DNA of 46,205 bases from a bacterium (lineage in GTDB: Bacteria; Bdellovibrionota_C; UBA2361; CALJRW01), in the NCBI GenBank assembly GCA_031385045.1, contig JANNBC010000049.1, positions 1 to 46,205 of the forward strand, in the 5' to 3' direction. The notes below the pieces were generated by a model. That model worked only from the letters and a program-made list of their open reading frames with translations. It was not told the origin of the DNA and made no database searches. The translations under genes were made by a program, and so were the position numbers. How positions within the stretch are numbered: the stretch's first letter is position 1; the number at the start of each line of letters is the position of its first letter. Of the stretch, positions 18,834 to 45,982 are shown in pieces.

Positions 18834-19571
18834 TTAATATTTATTGATAAAAATTACCTTAGAACGCCGAACTTTTACTTCCATACTATCTAAAAGTAAA
18901 AGTCGATATTCTGCCTGAAGCCGACTAGCAATAAGTGGATCGCTTTGTTCTTCTCTAGATTCATTTTTAACTTCCTCTGAATCCATAGACAGGGCAGTTA
19001 ATAAAGCTTTTTTTCGAAGCAGGAGTTCCAAGCCAAAAGCTAAAAAAATTAATAAAGATACCTGACCCATCAAATCATCAAAATCAATAAAAGTTTGCGC
19101 CACAGACTGATTCCAGTTAATCGGGATTACAATGGCAAATAAAATTAGCAAAGAAATAACTAAAATTAATTTCAATATTTCTTGTTTACCAGCAGTGACC
19201 CTAGCTCTCAAGTTATCTAAAGGATTAATTTTTCGCAGATCAAATAGTTTTTCTCTGATGGAGAATTGAAACCGACGTAAAAATAAATCAATTAAAACCA
19301 AAAAAATACTAGCAACTAGCATGGAACTAAATAATATTTGAAAAGATACCAAAATAATTCTTAAGAGCTCCTGAACATGCGGTGCTCCCAAGTTCCCTAG
19401 AATGGATTTTAACAAGATTTCAATCGTTACCCAATAGTGATTAAATTGGAGAAAAAGTAGATAGCCACTTAAAAGCAACAATAAGAGTCCTCGAGTTGTA
19501 AAATAATGTAAAAATTGACCATTTATACTGGCTTTCCTGAGCTTCTTACTACTTGCTGGGTGTTGTTTCAA
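18834..19571 (-). CDS. sctU: SctU/FlhB export-switch protein, N-terminal part only (TM plus CN)
   Basis: Start KQHPASSKKLRKAS..GQ; KINPL..L; MDSEEVKNE.REEQSDPLI; ends VRRSKVIFINKY* at the NPTH position. Confidence 0.8.
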   Translation of the reverse strand: MKQHPASSKKLRKASINGQFLHYFTTRGLLLLLLSGYLLFLQFNHYWVTIEILLKSILGNLGAPHVQELLRIILVSFQILFSSMLVASIFLVLIDLFLRRFQFSIREKLFDLRKINPLDNLRARVTAGKQEILKLILVISLLILFAIVIPINWNQSVAQTFIDFDDLMGQVSLLIFLAFGLELLLRKKALLTALSMDSEEVKNESREEQSDPLIASRLQAEYRLLLLDSMEVKVRRSKVIFINKY

Positions 19572-20230
19572 TGGAATACTCCCGATGTGATAAGTAGTAA
19601 AACAATCATTTTAATAAAAAAGATCTCACTAAAAAATGAGCACTGCGGGTATAATTTATTAACAAACATAAAAAATAGCTGGATCATCAAAAAGCAAAGA
19701 GCAATCGGAAAAATTAATTTAAAACCTAACTCTAAACTTTGAAGACACAAAGTTATACCCTCTTGCGCCAGTGCTTCCCAATTAGCAATCCTAGTCAGAC
19801 TAAGGACTATTTCTTGAATTAATTTTAATAAAAAATCTTGCTCTAGAAACATAACAAATAAAATAATTCGAACACCTTGCGCCAGTTGCTGACTAGAAAC
19901 AAAGTCATCTGAGCCAAAAAAGACGGCATAGTTCATACCTCGCAGGTTTTCTGTAACTTCAAAGAGAATGAGCAAGCTCCAAAACGAGAATAACAGAGTA
20001 AAACTGATTATTATTCCAATAATAAAATTGAGTCCTAAATTTAATTCTAACTGTGACAAATCAAAATTATTACCTAATAGATATCCACAAATGATCAGTG
20101 CAATCACACCTCTTCCCAAGAGACCTGAGACATTTAAGTTGTAAGGTAAGAGGATTAATGCACCCAAGACCCGAAAGTATACTGCTCCAAATTCTGGCAA
20201 CAAGCTTGCTAACAAATTAATTTCCCCCAA
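19568..20230 (-). CDS. sctT: SctT/FliR export-gate protein (divergent, short)
   Basis: Hydrophobic; FRV.G...LLP, IIG, K.YPQ...F; position between sctS and sctU. Confidence 0.7.
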   Translation of the reverse strand: MGEINLLASLLPEFGAVYFRVLGALILLPYNLNVSGLLGRGVIALIICGYLLGNNFDLSQLELNLGLNFIIGIIISFTLLFSFWSLLILFEVTENLRGMNYAVFFGSDDFVSSQQLAQGVRIILFVMFLEQDFLLKLIQEIVLSLTRIANWEALAQEGITLCLQSLELGFKLIFPIALCFLMIQLFFMFVNKLYPQCSFFSEIFFIKMIVLLLITSGVFH

Positions 20231-20477
20231 TTATAATTATCTGTTCCAAGCAAGATTGAATAAAATTAATAAAGTTTAAATTCCAACTTGGGAAAAAAAC
20301 TAGAATTGCAATTGCAGCAACTGTTATCTTAATCAAATAAAGTAAAGTCTGTTCCTGAACTTGAAATAACGAGAAGATAAAATTAAATGCAAAACTGATA
20401 ATGGCCACGAATCCTAATGGCCAAATCAATCCCCAAAGTAAAAGGTTAATTGTTTGACCAAGCAGATTAGTAAACAT
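20217..20477 (-). CDS. sctS: SctS/FliQ export-gate protein
   Basis: 86 aa, two TM segments, QVQEQTL..LIK motif. Confidence 0.85.
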   Translation of the reverse strand: MFTNLLGQTINLLLWGLIWPLGFVAIISFAFNFIFSLFQVQEQTLLYLIKITVAAIAILVFFPSWNLNFINFIQSCLEQIIIIGGN

Positions 20478-20478
20478 T

Positions 20479-21126
20479 TTAGTCGTAGGATAAAATAAGT
20501 GACTTAATAATTAGTTGCCAAAAATCAAGTCCGACAATTAAAATTATTTTTAAGGGCAAGGAAAGTAAGACTGGACTAAACATCATCATCCCTAGCCCCG
20601 CAAGTAAATTAGCGATTAAGAAATCAATAATTAAAAATGGTAACAGTACCATTAGTCCCATTTGGAAGGCCTCCTTTAATTCACTTAATAAGAAAGCTGT
20701 TAATGTTGTTGCAAAATTATTTTTGGTTTCATCCGTCTCCCTTTGGCTCTTAGCTAATAAACTTGCTAGAAAATGAAGTTCTTCTTCTCCCGCATGCTGG
20801 CTAATAAACTCTTTCCAGGGCTGAGTGATTAGTGCTGATTTATTGATTAATTCCGACAAGGATAGTTTTTCTAATTTAGTATTTAGTAGATCGCTAGACT
20901 GTAAATAGCTACTTGTCTGATCCCAAACTGGCTCCATCACCATTAGGCTAATAGCCAAAGAGAGGATTCCAATAATAATTCCAGATGGCACCTGTTGAGC
21001 ACCAATCGCATTTTTAAAAAGATTTAATACAATATTAATTTTTAAATAGGCAGTTCCAATAACAACTAAAAAAGGAAGGAGCGCTAGTGCTAGAGAAATC
21101 AGCAATAGATTAAAATTATTGTTCAT
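20479..21126 (-). CDS. sctR: SctR/FliP export-gate protein
   Basis: LALLPF...T...KI.IVL...NAIG.QQVP; AFLLSELKEAFQMG; LPFLIID; LGMMM.SP..SLPLK; no FliP-type signal peptide. Confidence 0.92.
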   Translation of the reverse strand: MNNNFNLLLISLALALLPFLVVIGTAYLKINIVLNLFKNAIGAQQVPSGIIIGILSLAISLMVMEPVWDQTSSYLQSSDLLNTKLEKLSLSELINKSALITQPWKEFISQHAGEEELHFLASLLAKSQRETDETKNNFATTLTAFLLSELKEAFQMGLMVLLPFLIIDFLIANLLAGLGMMMFSPVLLSLPLKIILIVGLDFWQLIIKSLILSYD

Positions 21127-37736: not shown

Positions 37737-40034
37737 TTACATTCTATCTGGAACCGTTATCCCAAGTAGGCTTAATCCTTGATTAAGAGTTTTACTAACT
37801 GCTTGACTAAACATAATCCGGTGCCCACTAAGTTCTAGATCCTCGGAGACAACTCGGTTATTGGCATAATAGGAATTAAACATTTTTGATAACTCATGAA
37901 GGTATGTACAGATATGATTAGTCTTAAAAGTCTGACATACTTCGAGTGTCATGGCATTAAACTCATTTAGTTTAAACAAAATTAATTTTTCCTCATCAGT
38001 CATTCTTTCCTGATTAAAGTATGGCTTGATACCAATTGATTCTGCTTTTTTTAACAGAGAACTAATCCTTACAGAACAGTATTGAATATATGGCCCTGAC
38101 TCACCATCAAGCTTTAACCATTCCTCCAAATCAAAAACTACCTTGGAGCTAGGTTCATATCGATTCATTGCATATTTAATTGCTCCAGCAGCTATTAAAT
38201 CAGCAGTCTTAAGGATCTCATCCTTTGGCCATTCTTCCGAGTATTTATTTAAAAAACTCGTAGTAATATAATCTCGCATTCCATTAATTAAAGAACTAAT
38301 TGGAACAATATTACCCTTCCTAGAACTCATTGCTCCATCCGGAAGCTCTACAAAATTATAAGGCAGATGAAAACAATCACCAGCATGTTCATACCCTAGC
38401 TTATCAAGAACTTTAAAAATTTGCTTAAAGTGATGTGCTTGGCGCAAATCAACTAGATAAATACTTTTATCTAGTTGATGATCATCAAACTTTTTCTTTG
38501 CTAAATACAAATCCTTACTACTATACATACCATTTCCATCAGACTTTAGGAGCATACAAAAACCTAAGTTATCCTCTGTTAAATCCATTCCAACGGCACC
38601 TTCTGATGAAACTAATTTCCCTTGGGCATATAAATCTTTAACTAAATTAACAGAAGCACTATCAACATCCGATTCCCAATACCAGGTATCAAACTTTATT
38701 CCTGACCAATTATAAGCTTCTTCCATTTGATCTATGGACCATTCCCTAGTCTCCTTCCAAAGCTCATAATACTCACCTTTTTGTTGTTCCAACTCTCTTA
38801 GGATTTGCGTTAAGATTTTAGCAGTCTTTTCACTTTCGGGAGTTTCTGCTTCGGCTTCGATTTGAGTATTAGCTTTCGTATAGAGTGCCCCTAACCACAC
38901 ACCTTTTTTGGATTCCGGTACAGGTTCTTGATTATGATTTTTTAAATACCATAGACACTTTGCGACATGTGTTCCAACATCACCTGGGAAGGTTGATGTT
39001 ACAGTAGGAACTCCCACATATTTAAATGTTAAGGCTAAAGACCCGCCTAAACAAATATTACGCATGTGCCCAACATGTAATTCTTTATGAGTATTTGGTT
39101 GAGAAAACTCCAACATGATCTGAGGAGGCATAAATAATAGTTGGCGACTAAAATAATCTTCCGAAATTATCGGAGTCAGAATTTGATCATTTACAAACTT
39201 CTTATTCAAACGAAAATTGATAAAAGGCCCAATATTTTCGATACTTTGAGCGAAAGTTAAAGGTACTTCTTCAGCGACCCTCTTGGCAAATTCGACTGGA
39301 TTAATCCCAAGTTTTTTTGATATAGCAAAAGCTGGCAAGGCTAAGTCACCATGACTCTTCTCTTTAGGAATTGACAACAGATGATAAATTTCACTTTGAT
39401 ATTCTAAGAGGTTAGCACTTTGGACTAATCCAATATTAATCAAACCAGTCACAATTCCGTAAGCAACATTTGACCTTAATTGATCAAATTGCAATTCTTG
39501 CGCGACAGACCCATTAAGTGGATAGCCTAATTTACGAGCTGGAAATGTTCCAGAGTTTAGATTTAAATCCATCTGGATATGAGGTAACCCAGCATCGTCG
39601 AAGACATCTCCTTTTTCTTTAAATCCAAGCTTTTCATAAAAATCTTTAGAAGCATATTGCGCTGCTAAAGTTGCCTTTGAAAAACCATTGTTTTTTCCAA
39701 AGTCGATTGCAGACTTGATCAGCTTACTAGCGTAGCCTTTATTTCTAAAATCTTTATCAACACAAAGTCGACCAATATTGATACAGCCTGGCTCTTTAGA
39801 GTAGATTCTTAAGCATGCTACAAGCTTTTCACCTTCAGACAAATAAAGATGTACTGCTTTAGGATCTAAGGAGTCTACTTCAAGTTCTAGCGGTACTTTT
39901 TGTTCTTGAACAAAAACTTGCTTGCGGAGATCTAAGATTGCTTGATAATGTTGAGGATCGCGCGTTGGTACACAGATTTTAATAGGCAAATCTGTTTTCA
40001 CAGTTTTTGGAGTATAAACTTCTTGCTGCATCAT
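37737..40034 (-). CDS. argS: GNAT acetyltransferase (ElaA/YjcF-like) fused to arginyl-tRNA synthetase
   Basis: About aa 1-160: LR..VFV.EQ.VP, IGRLCV, R.KG.A, AQ....FYEKLGF, DAGLPH. Then HGD, GPFINF, EFSQPNTHKELHVGH (HIGH), MSSRKG, GPYIQY, terminal RM. Confidence 0.95.
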   Translation of the reverse strand: MMQQEVYTPKTVKTDLPIKICVPTRDPQHYQAILDLRKQVFVQEQKVPLELEVDSLDPKAVHLYLSEGEKLVACLRIYSKEPGCINIGRLCVDKDFRNKGYASKLIKSAIDFGKNNGFSKATLAAQYASKDFYEKLGFKEKGDVFDDAGLPHIQMDLNLNSGTFPARKLGYPLNGSVAQELQFDQLRSNVAYGIVTGLINIGLVQSANLLEYQSEIYHLLSIPKEKSHGDLALPAFAISKKLGINPVEFAKRVAEEVPLTFAQSIENIGPFINFRLNKKFVNDQILTPIISEDYFSRQLLFMPPQIMLEFSQPNTHKELHVGHMRNICLGGSLALTFKYVGVPTVTSTFPGDVGTHVAKCLWYLKNHNQEPVPESKKGVWLGALYTKANTQIEAEAETPESEKTAKILTQILRELEQQKGEYYELWKETREWSIDQMEEAYNWSGIKFDTWYWESDVDSASVNLVKDLYAQGKLVSSEGAVGMDLTEDNLGFCMLLKSDGNGMYSSKDLYLAKKKFDDHQLDKSIYLVDLRQAHHFKQIFKVLDKLGYEHAGDCFHLPYNFVELPDGAMSSRKGNIVPISSLINGMRDYITTSFLNKYSEEWPKDEILKTADLIAAGAIKYAMNRYEPSSKVVFDLEEWLKLDGESGPYIQYCSVRISSLLKKAESIGIKPYFNQERMTDEEKLILFKLNEFNAMTLEVCQTFKTNHICTYLHELSKMFNSYYANNRVVSEDLELSGHRIMFSQAVSKTLNQGLSLLGITVPDRM

Positions 40035-40063
40035 ATTTTTTAATCGATAAATAGTACTATCAT

Positions 40064-41068
40064 CTAGGAAATATTTGATAATGAATCATAATATTCAAAA
40101 GCTAATTGAAGTTTATTAGCACAATCAAATATTTCACTTAAACGAACATGCTCATTCTCAGTATGAGCATCATTAATTGTCCCTGGCCCAATCATAATCA
40201 CAGTATATAACTTTGAAAAAGCAAAACAATCAGAACAAAAATCTACATCAGTCCCAATATACCCTTTGGGCACAGAAAAGTTTAAAGGTGGAATTGATTG
40301 CGAAACGACAACCAAGCCAGATTGATTTAAGATATCTTCTATTTGCTGAATGACTTGCTCCGGTGCAATCTTTGTTCGAATACATAACCAAGCCTTACAA
40401 TTAGGAGATTGAACATTAGGAGCTAATCCCCCCTCAATCTTCCCTACATTGATATAGAAATCTGAATTTTTTTCAACGGCAACTAGTAAATGATTTAACT
40501 GACCAATCATTTGATGAATGGCACTATGATTAATCCGAGTGCAGGAATGTCTGGACTCCGCTTGAATCTCAAAAAGCACCTCAATTACACCCTTACTGGA
40601 ACTTACAAATTGGCATTCAGTAGGCTCTCCGTTGATCAGATATTTTGCATTGATCGGATTATTATCCATATAATGCTGCGAGCCAATACCATCAACTTCT
40701 TCCCCAATTACATAAACAAAGCCTAAATCCTTAGCACCCGCTCGAGATAAATCATAGATTGCTGACAGTTGTGTTATTATCTGCCCCTTGGCATCGCATG
40801 ATCCCCGACCATAAATTAAATCTGATTCAACACGAACTTCAGGACCACCGGGAACAGTATCAAAATGAGAACTAAAAATAACTTTTGGGTTACCTAATTT
40901 TCCAATTACATTAAAACGATTTTTATCGATCTCTTGAAGTGAAAGCGAGAAGTCCGGGAAAAATCTCTTAATCATGTCAACTAAATAGATACCAGCGCGG
41001 TACTCATTCCCAGTGAATGATTCAACCTTTAAAAAATTTAATAAATTATTTTGAAGATCTGGTAACAT
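40064..41068 (-). CDS. M20-family metallo-amidohydrolase (ArgE/DapE-like)
   Basis: SHFDTV, GRGSCDAKG, GEE, GEPT, N.G.IEGG.APN, AHTENE. Confidence 0.9.
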   Translation of the reverse strand: MLPDLQNNLLNFLKVESFTGNEYRAGIYLVDMIKRFFPDFSLSLQEIDKNRFNVIGKLGNPKVIFSSHFDTVPGGPEVRVESDLIYGRGSCDAKGQIITQLSAIYDLSRAGAKDLGFVYVIGEEVDGIGSQHYMDNNPINAKYLINGEPTECQFVSSSKGVIEVLFEIQAESRHSCTRINHSAIHQMIGQLNHLLVAVEKNSDFYINVGKIEGGLAPNVQSPNCKAWLCIRTKIAPEQVIQQIEDILNQSGLVVVSQSIPPLNFSVPKGYIGTDVDFCSDCFAFSKLYTVIMIGPGTINDAHTENEHVRLSEIFDCANKLQLAFEYYDSLSNIS

Positions 41069-42713
41069 TTGATTTAATTAAAAAATTATTGATTACCAAG
41101 TAATTTAAAGGTGATTTTAAAAAACATTGGATCGCCTCCATTGGAGTTTCGACAATCGGCTCGCCTTGACCATTCATTGATGTATTTAAAATTATAGGTA
41201 CATTTGTTAACTCATTAATTGTAAATATCAGCTTATAAATTTTAGGATTATCAATTCTATTAATAGTTTGCAATCTAGCTGTTTGATCACAATGTACAAT
41301 AGCAGGTGCTTGCTCTAGAGTTCTAGATTTAACTTTGGGTGATAATAACATGAAGGGAGATGTTTGATTTAATTCAAAAAAATCCTGGGCAAACTCTTCT
41401 AGAACCATCGGTGCCAGCGGCCTAAAAGATTCTCGAAACTTAACAGAGGAATTAATAAAATCCTTGGTTGAGACTTGGACTGGGCTTGCAAGGATACTTC
41501 GATGCCCCAGTGCTCGTGGTCCAATCTCAGCCCCACCATTAAACCACATCACAATTTCTCCCGCAGCTATTAATTCCGCTACATCCTTAATTAATTTATC
41601 CTCACTTAAACTTTGGAAAGTAAGATTTTGTTCTGATTGTCTTAGGGAATTAGTAATTTCTAAATCGCTATAAGATCTTCCCCAAAAGGCATGTTTAATT
41701 TCCTGCCGAGGAAAATCATAGATCTGATGTGACAAATAATATCCTGCCCCAAAAGCAATACCATTATCTCCTGCTGCCGGAAAAACAAAAACTTTCTTAA
41801 AATTCGTTGCCTCCAAAATCTTGGCATTAGCAACACAATTTAAAGCAACACCTCCAGCTAAACATATTGTTTCCGTCGGGTATAACTTATATAAACATTG
41901 GCAATAATAAAAAATAATCTCCTCTAAAACTTTTTGGAAAGAAGAAGCAATATTTGCCGACTCCTCAAACTCTCCGCCACAAGACTTTAAATGCTTTAAT
42001 GATTCCCAGAGTAATCCATTCTTGATTAAGACCGCATTCTCTCTAAATTGTACATGTTTTAAAATTTGCTCCCGATAGATTGGCTGACCATAGCCAGCAA
42101 GCCCCATCGTCTTACCTTCTTCTAATACTCCAAAACCAGATAATAGGGTTCCAATCCGATAGAAAACTCCTAAAGAATTCTGCATATCAAAATATGAACT
42201 TACTTTACCTGTAATCACTTTTGTATCTACAATTTTATTCTTTAATCCGTAGCCTAATAAAACAGTTTCATAGATATTTTGATCTACTGAATCTCCGTAG
42301 CCATCTGTAACTAGGATCGCGGCATCTTCTGCTCCAGAGGGGAAAAATGCCGAGGCAGCGTGAGCGAGATGATGATTAATAAAAAGTGATTTTTGAGGAT
42401 AAGGTAAAAAGTTATGAAGAGAGTTACCAATTAATATTCGGTCTTGATTAATATTAACAGATGCCGCCTCCAGACAATATTTAATTAAAGGATCCAGTCT
42501 AGACTCAGATAAAGAAGCTGAGTCAGATTCCAAATTCATTTTCGCAAAAATCTCCGGATCAAATTTAGAATAATTACCAATGTCTAAACCATGCTTAACC
42601 CTTGTTAATCGCTCTTCTTCGATAGCAACTATTGGTTGACCATCTTTAAATAGACAGACCGTCCGATCATGTAAAGAATCACTAAATCCAATAAAAATAT
42701 TCTTGGTATTCAT
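41046..42713 (-). CDS. NodU/CmcH/TobZ-family carbamoyltransferase
   Basis: HD, EEERL.R.K, HHLAHAASAF, DGYG, EGKTMGLA.YG, AGGVALNC, D.G, E.GPRALG.RS, K.RE.FRP.AP, H.D.TAR.QT, LNTS.N..GEP. Confidence 0.95.
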   Translation of the reverse strand: MNTKNIFIGFSDSLHDRTVCLFKDGQPIVAIEEERLTRVKHGLDIGNYSKFDPEIFAKMNLESDSASLSESRLDPLIKYCLEAASVNINQDRILIGNSLHNFLPYPQKSLFINHHLAHAASAFFPSGAEDAAILVTDGYGDSVDQNIYETVLLGYGLKNKIVDTKVITGKVSSYFDMQNSLGVFYRIGTLLSGFGVLEEGKTMGLAGYGQPIYREQILKHVQFRENAVLIKNGLLWESLKHLKSCGGEFEESANIASSFQKVLEEIIFYYCQCLYKLYPTETICLAGGVALNCVANAKILEATNFKKVFVFPAAGDNGIAFGAGYYLSHQIYDFPRQEIKHAFWGRSYSDLEITNSLRQSEQNLTFQSLSEDKLIKDVAELIAAGEIVMWFNGGAEIGPRALGHRSILASPVQVSTKDFINSSVKFRESFRPLAPMVLEEFAQDFFELNQTSPFMLLSPKVKSRTLEQAPAIVHCDQTARLQTINRIDNPKIYKLIFTINELTNVPIILNTSMNGQGEPIVETPMEAIQCFLKSPLNYLVINNFLIKSNVTRSSK

Positions 42714-43741
42714 TAATAGTAAGATATTAGATAGGGGTTATCAGGGAGTAAAAATTGACTTGGTGGCTCCTTGGTAAGAACAGCTGTCCGACTAAGTAAT
42801 CTATCAGTGCCATCATACCTTGGAGTAAAGCTAGTTCTAGCATGGACTGAATTACTATTATTAATTAGTAGTAGATCGCCAACCTGCAAGGTTAATTCGA
42901 AGGCATTATCATTGAGATGTTGGTGTAATATTTTTAATGCATTAAAGGCTTCTAGATTATGAACTTTAGTAAATAGCGGATCAAATCTCATTTTAATTCT
43001 ATCAGGATTTGATAAGTCTAAGACAGGAAATGTTATGCCAGAACTAATGTTATCGACTGAGGAGTCCGGTAACATTGTATAATGGTTTCCTTCCAGTATA
43101 CTAATTATTTCTCGATCAATTTTAGAAAGATCTATTGTGCTTAACAGTGTCTTAGCCCGATCGTCCCCTCTAACACAAAATAATTCAATCCAATCACAAT
43201 TCACAGGAGAATGGGCATCCTCTGAATGCCAAAGTAAATCTACCGAGTTAGTTCCAACCTGTTCTGTGGATGTCTCAATTTTAGGAGTTAAGGTTTGAAT
43301 GACTGCACCATTGCGTTGACCAATATAACCATAAGGCCGACCAATTGTTAGTGCCATTGAAAAGACAATTAAATTACTTAATTGCATCAATTCTTTTTCC
43401 GTCCCTATTCCCTGACCAAAACCCCTAATTAAAAAGAAACCACTTTCCTTTTGTGATGTAGCTTTTTTGCCCAGAGTATCAATAACATTTAGGAAGTCTG
43501 ACATTTTTGAAAAAAGAAGATTTTCTAATAATTTTAGATCTTTAGAATTATTATAATCAATATCTAATGAAACCAGAGATAAGGCATTATTGATAATGGC
43601 AATCTCTGCTGAGCTAAGAATATATAATGAGCTACTGAATTTTTTTAAGATATCGTTTTGAGCAGTGAATGTATCAGGCAAATATGGGATGAAAGAATAA
43701 GTACTTCCCTGAATTTCACCAAACTTAGAAGTGGAAATCAT
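42713..43741 (-). CDS. Clavaminate synthase-like Fe(II)/2-oxoglutarate dioxygenase (VioC/AsnO/KDO type)
   Basis: LLWHSEDAH (HxE), L.GD.L.I.N...VHAR..F.PRYDG.DR.L.R. Confidence 0.9.
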   Translation of the reverse strand: MISTSKFGEIQGSTYSFIPYLPDTFTAQNDILKKFSSSLYILSSAEIAIINNALSLVSLDIDYNNSKDLKLLENLLFSKMSDFLNVIDTLGKKATSQKESGFFLIRGFGQGIGTEKELMQLSNLIVFSMALTIGRPYGYIGQRNGAVIQTLTPKIETSTEQVGTNSVDLLWHSEDAHSPVNCDWIELFCVRGDDRAKTLLSTIDLSKIDREIISILEGNHYTMLPDSSVDNISSGITFPVLDLSNPDRIKMRFDPLFTKVHNLEAFNALKILHQHLNDNAFELTLQVGDLLLINNSNSVHARTSFTPRYDGTDRLLSRTAVLTKEPPSQFLLPDNPYLISYY

Positions 43742-43874
43742 TGTCCTGTGAATATATTAATTATTAGGATCTAAAGTCAATAAAAATCTTTATGTTCCTT
43801 TTTTGCAACAAATACCTAACTTATTTGGTTATTAGTGAAAAAATGACATCTGAAAGGAGCAAACAAGTTGGAAT

Positions 43875-44276: not shown

Positions 44277-44816
44277 TTATTTTGTTAGTGCATAACACAT
44301 AGAATCTCTTGGAATCTTAGGATCTATATTTGGTCGAACCTTCCATCGTTTTAAAATACCTTCGAATTTTAATCCAATTTTTTCAAGAACTTTTGCTGAG
44401 GATTGATGCTCAGAATCACAGACTGTCCAAACACGATAAATTTCTGGATTAGAAATAGCTAAATCCACTATTGCAGAAGCAGCTTCTGTGGCAAAGCCAT
44501 TACCCCAATATTTTTTTGCAACGGCAAAACCAATTGTAGCAGAACAATTATTGGGAATTAACGAAACAACTCCAACAGGTAGATTCTCAGTTTTTGAGAT
44601 AATTAAATATTCAAACCACTCACCCAATTCCCATGACTTTTCGGCTTCAGATAAATATTGGATTGTGTCTTCCAGTGTTTTTGGCGGAAGCCAAGCCACA
44701 TAACGATTAATTTCTGGATCAGTTGAATAACTAAAAACAAAATCTGCGTCTTCTTTTTTAATACGGCGCAATACTAACCTAGTGGTAGAAATTTCAGAAG
44801 GAAATATTTTACTCAT
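44277..44816 (-). CDS. RimJ/RimL-family GNAT acetyltransferase
   Basis: T.RL.LR....D, IG......WGNGFATEA, S.KVLEKIG..FEG..R. Confidence 0.9.
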   Translation of the reverse strand: MSKIFPSEISTTRLVLRRIKKEDADFVFSYSTDPEINRYVAWLPPKTLEDTIQYLSEAEKSWELGEWFEYLIISKTENLPVGVVSLIPNNCSATIGFAVAKKYWGNGFATEAASAIVDLAISNPEIYRVWTVCDSEHQSSAKVLEKIGLKFEGILKRWKVRPNIDPKIPRDSMCYALTK

Positions 44817-45270
44817 TAGATTTACTGATATTTCAAATTAATCCTAAACATACATAAGTGTTAAACGGAAATGAATTCCTATTATAAAACCACTGTTCAC
44901 ATAAACATACTAGCACTATTTAAACCTTAAAAAATAGAAACCTTTAAGTAGTAGTGCATTTTATGTGATTTGTTGTTTGTTATTCAAGTAACATCACAGA
45001 ATCTAAATAAGTATCCATTAGGGTCTTAAACAAAAAATTGCAAAAGCCAGCAATTTAGCTAAGCTTTTTTAATAGCTTAGATACGCTAGGCAAGGATTTT
45101 TTTCAGAAAAACATACCATTATTTGTTAAATAATATCATCTTTGGACTAACCCCACCCTTTTTCGCCAGAATAAGTACTTCAGTCTACAATCTTATTGCA
45201 AAAATTCGGAAACACGAAGACAACCCCGATAGCAAAACAATCGATATATTATAAAAACCCCTTCAGGAAA

Positions 45271-45306
45271 TATGTACTTTACAACATATGCACCATGAGT
45301 CATAAT
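45271..45306 (+). promoter_or_regulatory. TA promoter with two tandem TATG-N10-CATA operators
   Basis: TATG-tactttacaa-CATA (45271-45288) and TATG-caccatgagt-CATA (45287-45304) overlap TTTACA-N17-CATAAT. Confidence 0.65.
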
Positions 45307-45654
45307 GTAAATAAGCAGATAAATTGGGATATTATATTTCACCCTGATTTTAAGAGTGAATTTGATAACTTTGAATCTGACTTACAAGATGAACTAATTT
45401 CCCATTTATTAGTTCTCAAAGTTTTTGGTCCTAATTTGGGGCGTCCCCTTGTAGATACTCTAAAAGGTTCTAAATTTAAGTTGATCAAAGAACTAAGGTT
45501 TAATTATTTAAACACAGTCTGGAGATTTTTGTTTGCCTTTGATCCGAAAAGACAAGCAATCATTTTGGTAGGTGGAAATAAAAAAGGTAAAAATCAAAAG
45601 GATTTTTATAAATCTTTGATTAAATTAGCAGATCTGAGATTTAACGAACATTAA
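45295..45654 (+). CDS. RelE/ParE/HigB-like (Gp49/DUF891-type) toxin
   Basis: W...FH..F..EF, L...GP.LGRP.VDTLKGS, KELR, WR..FAFDP.RQAI.LVGG.K; start uncertain (ATG 45295 or ATA 45319). Confidence 0.88.
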   Translation: MSHNVNKQINWDIIFHPDFKSEFDNFESDLQDELISHLLVLKVFGPNLGRPLVDTLKGSKFKLIKELRFNYLNTVWRFLFAFDPKRQAIILVGGNKKGKNQKDFYKSLIKLADLRFNEH

Positions 45655-45670
45655 AAAGCGCTGAATTAAA

Positions 45671-45982
45671 ATGAATACAACTAAGTTAGATAAAATCATC
45701 AAAACGCTTCCTAAAAACCGCCAGAGAAAAATTAAAGCTCGAGCTGTTCAGCTCATTCAAACAGAAATGTCGATGCAAGAAATTCGAAAAACAACTAATA
45801 TTACGCAAGAAGAACTAGCCCTAAAGCTCGGAATTGGACAAGATAATATTTCTAGGATTGAAAATCGACTGGATATCAAACTGTCCACCTTAAATAATTA
45901 TATTAAAGCACTTGGTGGAAAGTTAAGAATTGTGATTGAAATGCCAGGAGATCAAAAAATTAATCTTTTATTGTCTAAATAA
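45671..45982 (+). CDS. XRE-family HTH antitoxin (HigA-like)
   Basis: EIRK...ITQEELA..LGI.Q..ISRIE.R.D.KLSTL..Y..ALGG.L; follows the toxin. Confidence 0.9.
   Translation: MNTTKLDKIIKTLPKNRQRKIKARAVQLIQTEMSMQEIRKTTNITQEELALKLGIGQDNISRIENRLDIKLSTLNNYIKALGGKLRIVIEMPGDQKINLLLSK

Follow-up and report, generated by a model that had tools for sequence, protein, structure and literature searches.

Organization of the operon and identity of its products

The window analysed here is the whole 46,205-nucleotide stretch of contig JANNBC010000049.1 from a bacterium of the Bdellovibrionota_C (assembly GCA_031385045.1), and it carries an operon of four minus-strand genes at positions 37737-43741. In the order of transcription, these genes encode a clavaminate-synthase (CAS)-like Fe(II)/2-oxoglutarate (2OG) amino-acid dioxygenase of the OrfP/NapI/VioC/KDO1 family (42713-43741; 342 aa; Pfam TauD), a CmcH/NodU/TobZ-type carbamoyltransferase (CT) with Kae1-like and YrdC-like parts (41046-42713; 555 aa; Carbam_trans_N and Carbam_trans_C), an M20 ArgE-like N-acyl-amino-acid deacylase (40064-41068; 334 aa; Peptidase_M20), and a fusion of a GNAT domain to an arginyl-tRNA synthetase (ArgRS) (37737-40034; 765 aa; GNAT, tRNA-synt_1d and DALR_1). 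The fusion comprises an N-terminal ElaA/YjcF/SACOL1063-type GNAT domain (approximately residues 18-160; 39555-39983, minus strand) and a complete class I ArgRS domain (residues 213-765; 37737-39398, minus strand). The dioxygenase and CT genes overlap by 1 bp (TAATG, at 42713), the CT and M20 genes overlap by 23 bp (41046-41068), and the M20 and fusion genes are separated by 29 bp (40035-40063). An earlier note on this DNA had described the four genes with these junctions and with intact catalytic motifs, and the same coordinates and motifs were recovered here. Its statement that no non-ribosomal peptide synthetase, polyketide synthase or exporter adjoins the operon was borne out by a Pfam-level scan of the open reading frames (ORFs) of the window. 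A weak candidate for a sigma-70 promoter (TTGACT, 18-bp spacer, TATATT; 43751-43780, minus strand) lies 10 bp upstream of the dioxygenase gene; sigma-70-like sites across the region number 26, against 32.7 expected by chance, and the counts of both promoters and terminators are at chance level.

The dioxygenase possesses the HxE...H triad, the 2OG arginine and the CAS fold that characterize CAS-like hydroxylases, with the motif residues H172-x-E174, H300, R314 and R318 intact. It matches OrfP at 1e-22 among the sequences of the PDB, and its AlphaFold2 (AF2) model (pLDDT 88) aligns with KDO1, OrfP and AsnO at a TM of ~0.74; Foldseek ranks these three alike, with no separation among them. In the alignment with VioC, H168/E170/H316 correspond to H172/E174/H300, Arg334 corresponds to R318, and Asp268 corresponds to D254; Arg334 and Asp268 of VioC are reported to bind the substrate carboxylate and the guanidinium, respectively (PMC10884159). 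The D268/D270 pair of VioC is not complete, because D254 is kept but Leu256 replaces Asp270, at a position occupied by Ala in NapI and Tyr in OrfP. In addition, the dioxygenase shares HxED and D-x-S patterns with the arginine enzymes, unlike the HNEN and PPPS of AsnO. It therefore resembles VioC, OrfP, NapI, KDO1 and AsnO in its fold, its triad and the equivalents of R318 and D254, whereas it differs from them in its low structural identity (21-27%), in the Leu at VioC D270, and in scoring below the cut-offs of the VioC equivalog (TIGR03946: 114 bits vs 419) and the GntD model. As judged from the alignment, the basic-amino-acid pocket of VioC/OrfP/NapI is retained, which supports a free basic amino acid (Arg, Orn or Lys) as the predicted substrate. 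The interpretation given in the earlier note is supported in part, by this pocket and by two genomic results described below, namely the co-occurrence with argS in other genomes and the presence of a second argS.

Homologs of this dioxygenase also occur elsewhere. At least 80 viral contigs of IMG/VR (L044-L123) encode a compact CAS-like dioxygenase (~257-294 aa in ten that were measured) akin to the subfamily found in Peribacteria. At L040:1012-4932 (G050:C303), a dioxygenase gene of the same family precedes two unknown ORFs, a kinase gene of the APH family and an ornithine/arginine/diaminopimelate decarboxylase-family gene, after which the contig ends. A scan of GTDB contigs with the dioxygenase as a single-protein query gave no confirmed match.

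The identity of the CT is established by Pfam N and C domains above cut-off, by a PDB match at 1e-66, and by intact metal and ATP motifs (HHxxH at 114-118, KxMGL and PRALGxRS), although it does not reach the NodU equivalog cut-off. It belongs to a distinct clade, in which 48 other proteins at 44-54% identity are set off by a gap in score. The M20 protein retains H68-x-D70, D92, E123-E124, E148 and H302, including its metal ligands; it falls below the ArgE equivalog cut-off (TIGR01892: 99 bits vs 298), its best matches include acetylornithine and acetylcitrulline deacetylases, it resembles the acetylcitrulline deacetylase 2F7V, and a paralog (29% identical) is encoded on contig C24 of the same genome. 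The GNAT portion of the fusion is a single acetyl-CoA-type ElaA/YjcF domain. The ArgRS portion has intact HVGH (320-323) and MSSRK (569-573) motifs and a DALR domain, and scores 355 bits against the argS model TIGR00456 (cut-off, 262). The GNAT::ArgRS architecture recurs in two other 90% protein clusters that are 61% and 56% identical to the present protein, and thus the fusion is not an artefact of assembly. A second study yielded a 1,457-bp contig that spans 38093-39549, on the linker side of the fusion, with one difference; one further contig covers the entire region, but may derive from the source sample itself. A metagenome scan with an alignment of the fusion returned 24 loci and no GNAT::ArgRS fusion, the sizes of the contigs of P0004, P0005 and P0272 match no CT-clade entry seen, and the AF2 model of the fusion is uninformative (pLDDT 51, pTM 0.33).

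Conservation of the cluster and its link to an extra ArgRS

CT loci were collected by a GTDB scan (at least 78 loci) and by a search of 205 Peribacterales genomes, which added one locus (L323); a locus was regarded as in-clade when its CT was at least 50% identical to that of the window. Five in-clade loci were found among the matches listed, namely the window, one in the Verrucomicrobiae (L151), one in the Saccharimonadales (L152) and two in the Peribacteria (L148 and L323). In all five of them, the order dioxygenase-CT-M20 is conserved and an ArgRS gene lies within 4 kb, and the same ElaA-type GNAT is present in four. The two Peribacteria loci are kin, and they therefore represent four independent lineages rather than five. 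The three genes upstream of argS in the window are accordingly found together with argS in four more genomes, which belong to three additional lineages; the earlier note had named a lack of such co-occurrence as grounds against its reading. The arrangement is dioxygenase-CT-M20-ArgRS in L152, ArgRS-dioxygenase-CT-methyltransferase-M20-GNAT in L148, and argG-argH-dioxygenase-CT-M20-GNAT-unknown-ArgRS in L323 (genome G130). In L151, the dioxygenase-CT-M20-GNAT genes are accompanied by a divergent HTH-radical SAM-ArgRS unit, with ArgRS on the opposite strand, and recombinase and coupling-protein genes lie around them. The GNAT is a stand-alone gene after M20 in L148, L151 and L323, and is not adjacent in L152. 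The gene immediately preceding that of the cluster ArgRS in L148 and L323 encodes a conserved protein of 203-210 aa with no known family (L148:113-721 and L323:13190-13819; 52% identical).

The dioxygenase and the clade CT are both found in the same two of the 205 Peribacterales genomes. Among 15 dioxygenase homologs with a known contig size, ten lie on a contig equal in size to a clade-CT contig, which is indirect and says nothing about ArgRS. No clade CT was found in the other 123 genomes of the class that were searched, in 400 other sampled Saccharimonadales genomes or in 250 other sampled genomes of the phylum of host G125, which are samples and do not prove its absence, and a plasmid search with the CT gave a best match of 36% identity and no clade member. 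The cluster dioxygenases form two subfamilies (FastTree, modest support), of which that of Peribacteria matches KDO1, a lysine 3-hydroxylase, and OrfP equally. The cluster ArgRSs form three lineages that are 24-27% identical to one another; the pairing of dioxygenase and ArgRS has thus survived the swapping of its parts. Within the lineage of the window, the ArgRS copies of known cluster context (window, L151 and L124) group together in a single subclade (support 85), in which L151 has a long branch. The cluster is probably horizontally mobile, and its hosts are several bacteria that are not related to one another.

The association with ArgRS is specific. By chance, 0.7-4.6% of the genes of a genome are expected to have argS within 10 kb, and no ArgRS gene was found beside any of the 73 out-of-clade CT loci among the matches listed (47 of them at least 20 kb long), the two loci of the sister CT subclade, 80 viral dioxygenase loci and 79 viral CT loci (many of these control loci being shorter than 20 kb), or ten loci of distant Saccharimonadales dioxygenases. 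The sister CT subclade itself (L149:6907-12651 and L150:6736-15300; Trebonia and Frankia umida) has another conserved cluster without an aminoacyl-tRNA synthetase (aaRS), consisting of genes for a PhyH dioxygenase, a heme-oxygenase-like diiron protein, a methyltransferase, the CT and an aldo-keto reductase. Two further types of cluster also place a related dioxygenase next to an extra ArgRS. One type (L041:8792-17001, on G079:C23, and L124:1092-10292) contains a CAS-like dioxygenase (HTDE), a methyltransferase-like protein, an SDR, an AMP-binding protein, an AsnB-like amidotransferase and ArgRS, and the ArgRSs of the two loci differ in lineage; L041 is surrounded by integrase/Rep/ParA-like genes, and the dioxygenase gene of L124 is interrupted by an insertion sequence. 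The other type (L328:1644-10273, on G126:C20, from the same Saccharimonadales genome as L152) contains a HAD protein, an endonuclease/phosphatase-family protein, a CAS-like dioxygenase, a nucleotidyltransferase::PLP-decarboxylase fusion and ArgRS. Genome G126 carries three ArgRS genes.

The genome of the window (G000) encodes a second argS on contig C54, as the earlier note had proposed to look for, and this copy is only 27% identical to that of the cluster. A genome of the same genus, G001, contains only the C54-type argS and no match to the dioxygenase or the clade CT, and its ortholog of the ArnT gene that flanks the cluster has different neighbours. The cluster is thus accessory, and on sequence grounds the ArgRS of the window is an extra copy of a foreign lineage. 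In codon usage and GC3, the four genes do not depart from the range of the genome, so that there is no sign of recent arrival. Another ArgRS is present in all five cluster hosts; in G000, G125 and G130 it is 25-27% identical to the cluster copy, which is of a different lineage from the housekeeping one. Two genomic traits expected of self-resistance by aaRS duplication are seen here: an aaRS gene lies in a conserved cluster, and a housekeeping synthetase with the same specificity is encoded elsewhere in the genome. In G014 (L038:9297-9887, on G014:C96, and L005), a dioxygenase remnant and an ArgRS of the cluster subclade, the sole ArgRS match of that genome, are possibly what is left of a cluster that has decayed, its ArgRS having taken the place of the native one.

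With respect to arginine metabolism, G000 contains canonical argB/C/D/F/G/H and another M20 gene, and thus has no need of the cluster for arginine; argG and two OTCace-family genes are present in G000, G124 and G125. The single contig of G130 carries argG and argH directly upstream of the dioxygenase gene, together with one OTCace-family match, beside carA, but neither argF nor an argC above cut-off. In the arginine islands of Peribacteria (L323, L348, L349, L350, L370, L372 and L373), an ArgRS of a distinct clade occurs alongside genes for AdoMetDC-like, amidinotransferase/DDAH-like and YbaK editing-domain proteins. The islands also contain arg biosynthesis genes, including one for a conserved protein of 347 aa with no Pfam family between argF and argC.

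A RimJ/RimL-type GNAT gene (44277-44816, minus strand), located 535 bp upstream of the operon on the same strand, was considered as a member of the cluster and rejected, as it has no counterpart in the other dioxygenase-CT-M20 loci. A Gp49/RelE-like gene and an HTH gene (45196-45982, plus strand) are probably a toxin-antitoxin pair at the contig end, and FliP, FliR-like and short FlhB-like export genes (18834-21126, minus strand) are accompanied by no further flagellar or type III genes among the window ORFs scanned. An Rfam gathering scan of the window and five loci found no riboswitch or T-box, but only tRNAs and one Acido-Lenti-1 RNA.

A possible aaRS-guarded pathway and its alternatives

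These genes constitute a real, undescribed, cross-lineage cluster family that resembles aaRS-guarded clusters for non-canonical amino acids. We consider it about evenly balanced (a probability of roughly 0.5) that the cluster hydroxylates and carbamoylates arginine, ornithine or lysine to give an arginine or citrulline analogue, against which the host is guarded by N-acetylation and a spare ArgRS; the substrate, the product and the resistance role are all ones that we infer. A feasible model may be that a horizontally mobile, non-templated module makes a hydroxylated and carbamoylated basic amino acid and carries two protections for translation. The dioxygenase, to judge from its pocket, would hydroxylate C3 or C4 of L-arginine, or of ornithine or lysine, and the TobZ-type CT, by analogy with its family, would carbamoylate the product with carbamoyl phosphate and ATP, most simply on the new hydroxyl group. 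The GNAT may add an N-alpha-acetyl group to the analogue or to a precursor of it and thereby prevent activation by any synthetase; the M20 protein, which is ArgE-like, would then strip this group to release the product. The spare ArgRS would tolerate or exclude the analogue, so that tRNA-Arg stays charged with arginine. In the genome of the window, the two presumed guards are fused in one protein. This proposal leans on separate precedents, namely the immunity of tiarin clusters, the mistranslation of hydroxyarginine, the acetylation, carbamoylation and hydroxylation steps of polyoxin synthesis, and O-carbamoylation by CmcH/NodU enzymes. It is also tempting to speculate, more tentatively, that the product is an undescribed free amino-acid antimetabolite directed against arginyl-tRNA synthesis, and that the fused GNAT proofreads the analogue, either free or on tRNA-Arg, by N-acetylation at ArgRS; this form of the proposal is possible but rather doubtful.

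Several observations weigh against a guarded pathway of this kind. No transporter is found in any of the five operons among the neighbours scanned, which would be odd for a secreted weapon, and neither a pocket change nor any other substitution is common to the cluster ArgRSs in the motif regions that were compared. In G124 and G126, the cluster ArgRS shares its lineage with another ArgRS of the same genome (53% and 58% identity, respectively). The Peribacterales ArgRS clade occurs in seven genomes, of which two contain the cluster, and is often beside arginine-metabolism genes. The only ArgRS match in G014 is of the window type, while its dioxygenase is a 5′-truncated remnant on another contig. 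Furthermore, five of the 15 dioxygenase homologs have no clade-CT contig of equal size, and G126, an incomplete metagenome-assembled genome, has no match for the small chain of carbamoyl-phosphate synthase, for ornithine transcarbamylase or for argG.

One alternative is a shadow arginine pathway, in which the GNAT would acetylate (hydroxy)ornithine, the CT would take over the role of ArgF' by N-carbamoylation of the side-chain amine, the M20 protein would release (hydroxy)citrulline, and ArgG and ArgH would complete (hydroxy)arginine, which would be used by the cell itself and handled by the extra ArgRS. The argG and argH genes of G130 with its sparse remaining arg set, the acetylornithine and acetylcitrulline deacetylases among the top M20 matches, and the match of the Peribacteria dioxygenase to KDO1 as well as to OrfP are consistent with this scheme. 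On the other hand, the canonical pathway is complete in G000, argG and two OTCace-family genes are present in two further hosts, argG has no match in G126, and CmcH/NodU enzymes are described as O-carbamoyltransferases (PMC6022934); moreover, the synthesis of plain arginine needs no hydroxylase, yet the dioxygenase gene directly precedes the CT gene in all five loci. Such a pathway is therefore considered unlikely. It is less probable still that the dioxygenase-CT-M20-GNAT module forms a real pathway but ArgRS is a passenger of arginine islands or a means of Arg-tRNA capacity, with no protective role. The Peribacterales clade does reside in arginine islands without the cluster in five of its seven genomes, and the sole ArgRS match of G014 and the absence of a shared pocket change point the same way; by contrast, the ArgRS accompanies the module in four unrelated lineages with three ArgRS lineages, is fused to the GNAT of the module in the window, and is again paired with related dioxygenases in two further types of cluster, while all of the controls are negative.

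The earlier note had also raised a tRNA-linked pathway; in such chemistry, ArgRS would supply (hydroxy)Arg-tRNA as a donor or the GNAT would acetylate charged tRNA in biosynthesis. The GNAT::ArgRS fusion in three 90% clusters would fit such chemistry, and aaRS genes in biosynthetic gene clusters (BGCs) can serve tRNA-dependent steps (10.64898/2025.12.02.691738). The donor reading loses weight, however, as the GNAT consists of one acetyl-CoA-type ElaA/YjcF domain and is encoded by a separate gene in three of the other four loci, being not adjacent in the fourth; in addition, no aminoacyl-transferase or ligase is conserved, and ArgRS is on the opposite strand in L151, so that we regard this chemistry as quite improbable. 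The least probable of the explanations is defence against an arginine antimetabolite from outside, such as canavanine, in which the enzymes would modify and mask the imported analogue, ArgRS would resist it, and nothing would be exported. The lack of an exporter, the crystallization of OrfP with canavanine, the B3/4 editing-domain gene located 6 kb from the cluster of G124, and the report that most ArgRSs fail to exclude canavanine (PMC10018355) are in its favour, whereas carbamoylation at the expense of ATP and carbamoyl phosphate followed by deacetylation follows a biosynthetic logic, the B3/4 (CtdA-like) gene occurs in only one of the five hosts, and no riboswitch family was found.

Relation to known systems and implications

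The guarded pathway preferred here has parallels in several known systems, and a literature search, which covered few subscription papers and no supplements, found neither the cluster nor the GNAT::ArgRS fusion described. Tiarin BGCs likewise contain an extra ArgRS, with a housekeeping copy elsewhere, and a GNAT, each of which protects against the ArgRS inhibitor trifolitoxin (10.64898/2025.12.02.691738). However, tiarins are ribosomal peptides with a precursor and modifying enzymes, and no such core genes are conserved here: the conserved genes are those for the dioxygenase, CT, M20, GNAT and ArgRS only, as far as ORFs above 70-80 aa are concerned, smaller ones not having been examined. The words "carbamoyl" and "dioxygenase" do not occur in the main text of the tiarin report (10.64898/2025.12.02.691738). 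In the Alf and Fuz clusters, which are marked by a tRNA deacylase, an Fe/2OG enzyme similarly hydroxylates a free amino acid (FuzA producing 3R-hydroxyarginine) that is mischarged and is met by a cluster-encoded guard, and (3R)-hydroxyarginine is reported to be misincorporated at Arg codons (PMC13149037). An AlaX deacylase acts as the guard in those clusters, in contrast to the spare ArgRS and GNAT presumed to do so in the present one, and "carbamoyl" is absent from the main text of that report (PMC13149037). The carbamoylpolyoxamic-acid branch of polyoxin synthesis (PolL-P) resembles the proposed route in that a C5 amino acid is N-acetylated, deacylated, hydroxylated and, by a NodU-type enzyme, O-carbamoylated with the logic of the arginine pathway, but it starts from glutamate, requires both a kinase and a reductase, leads to a nucleoside antibiotic and involves no aaRS (PMC4029187); neither the acetylglutamate kinase nor the reductase is a conserved neighbour in the five loci. 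The pathway of acetylornithine transcarbamylase and acetylcitrulline deacetylase also protects by acetylation, carbamoylates and deacetylates, and the resemblance of the M20 protein to 2F7V is in keeping with this; unlike the present cluster, it employs an OTCase-fold transcarbamylase and no hydroxylase.

The tiarin report describes trifolitoxin as the first natural antibiotic for which selective inhibition of ArgRS is known (10.64898/2025.12.02.691738), and a second, small-molecule route to the same target would therefore be new chemistry. If the guarded pathway is real, this route would be provided by a template-free pathway of four to five genes that is cheap to reconstitute, and secondary metabolism would be demonstrated in the reduced-genome Patescibacteria. 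The combination of a CAS-like dioxygenase with an extra argS would then serve as a genome-mining marker for at least three unexplored cluster types, several of them in these reduced-genome Patescibacteria. Finally, no editing domain is described for ArgRS in a published account (PMC10018355), and the cluster makes it testable whether a fused acetyltransferase can proofread for a synthetase that lacks one.

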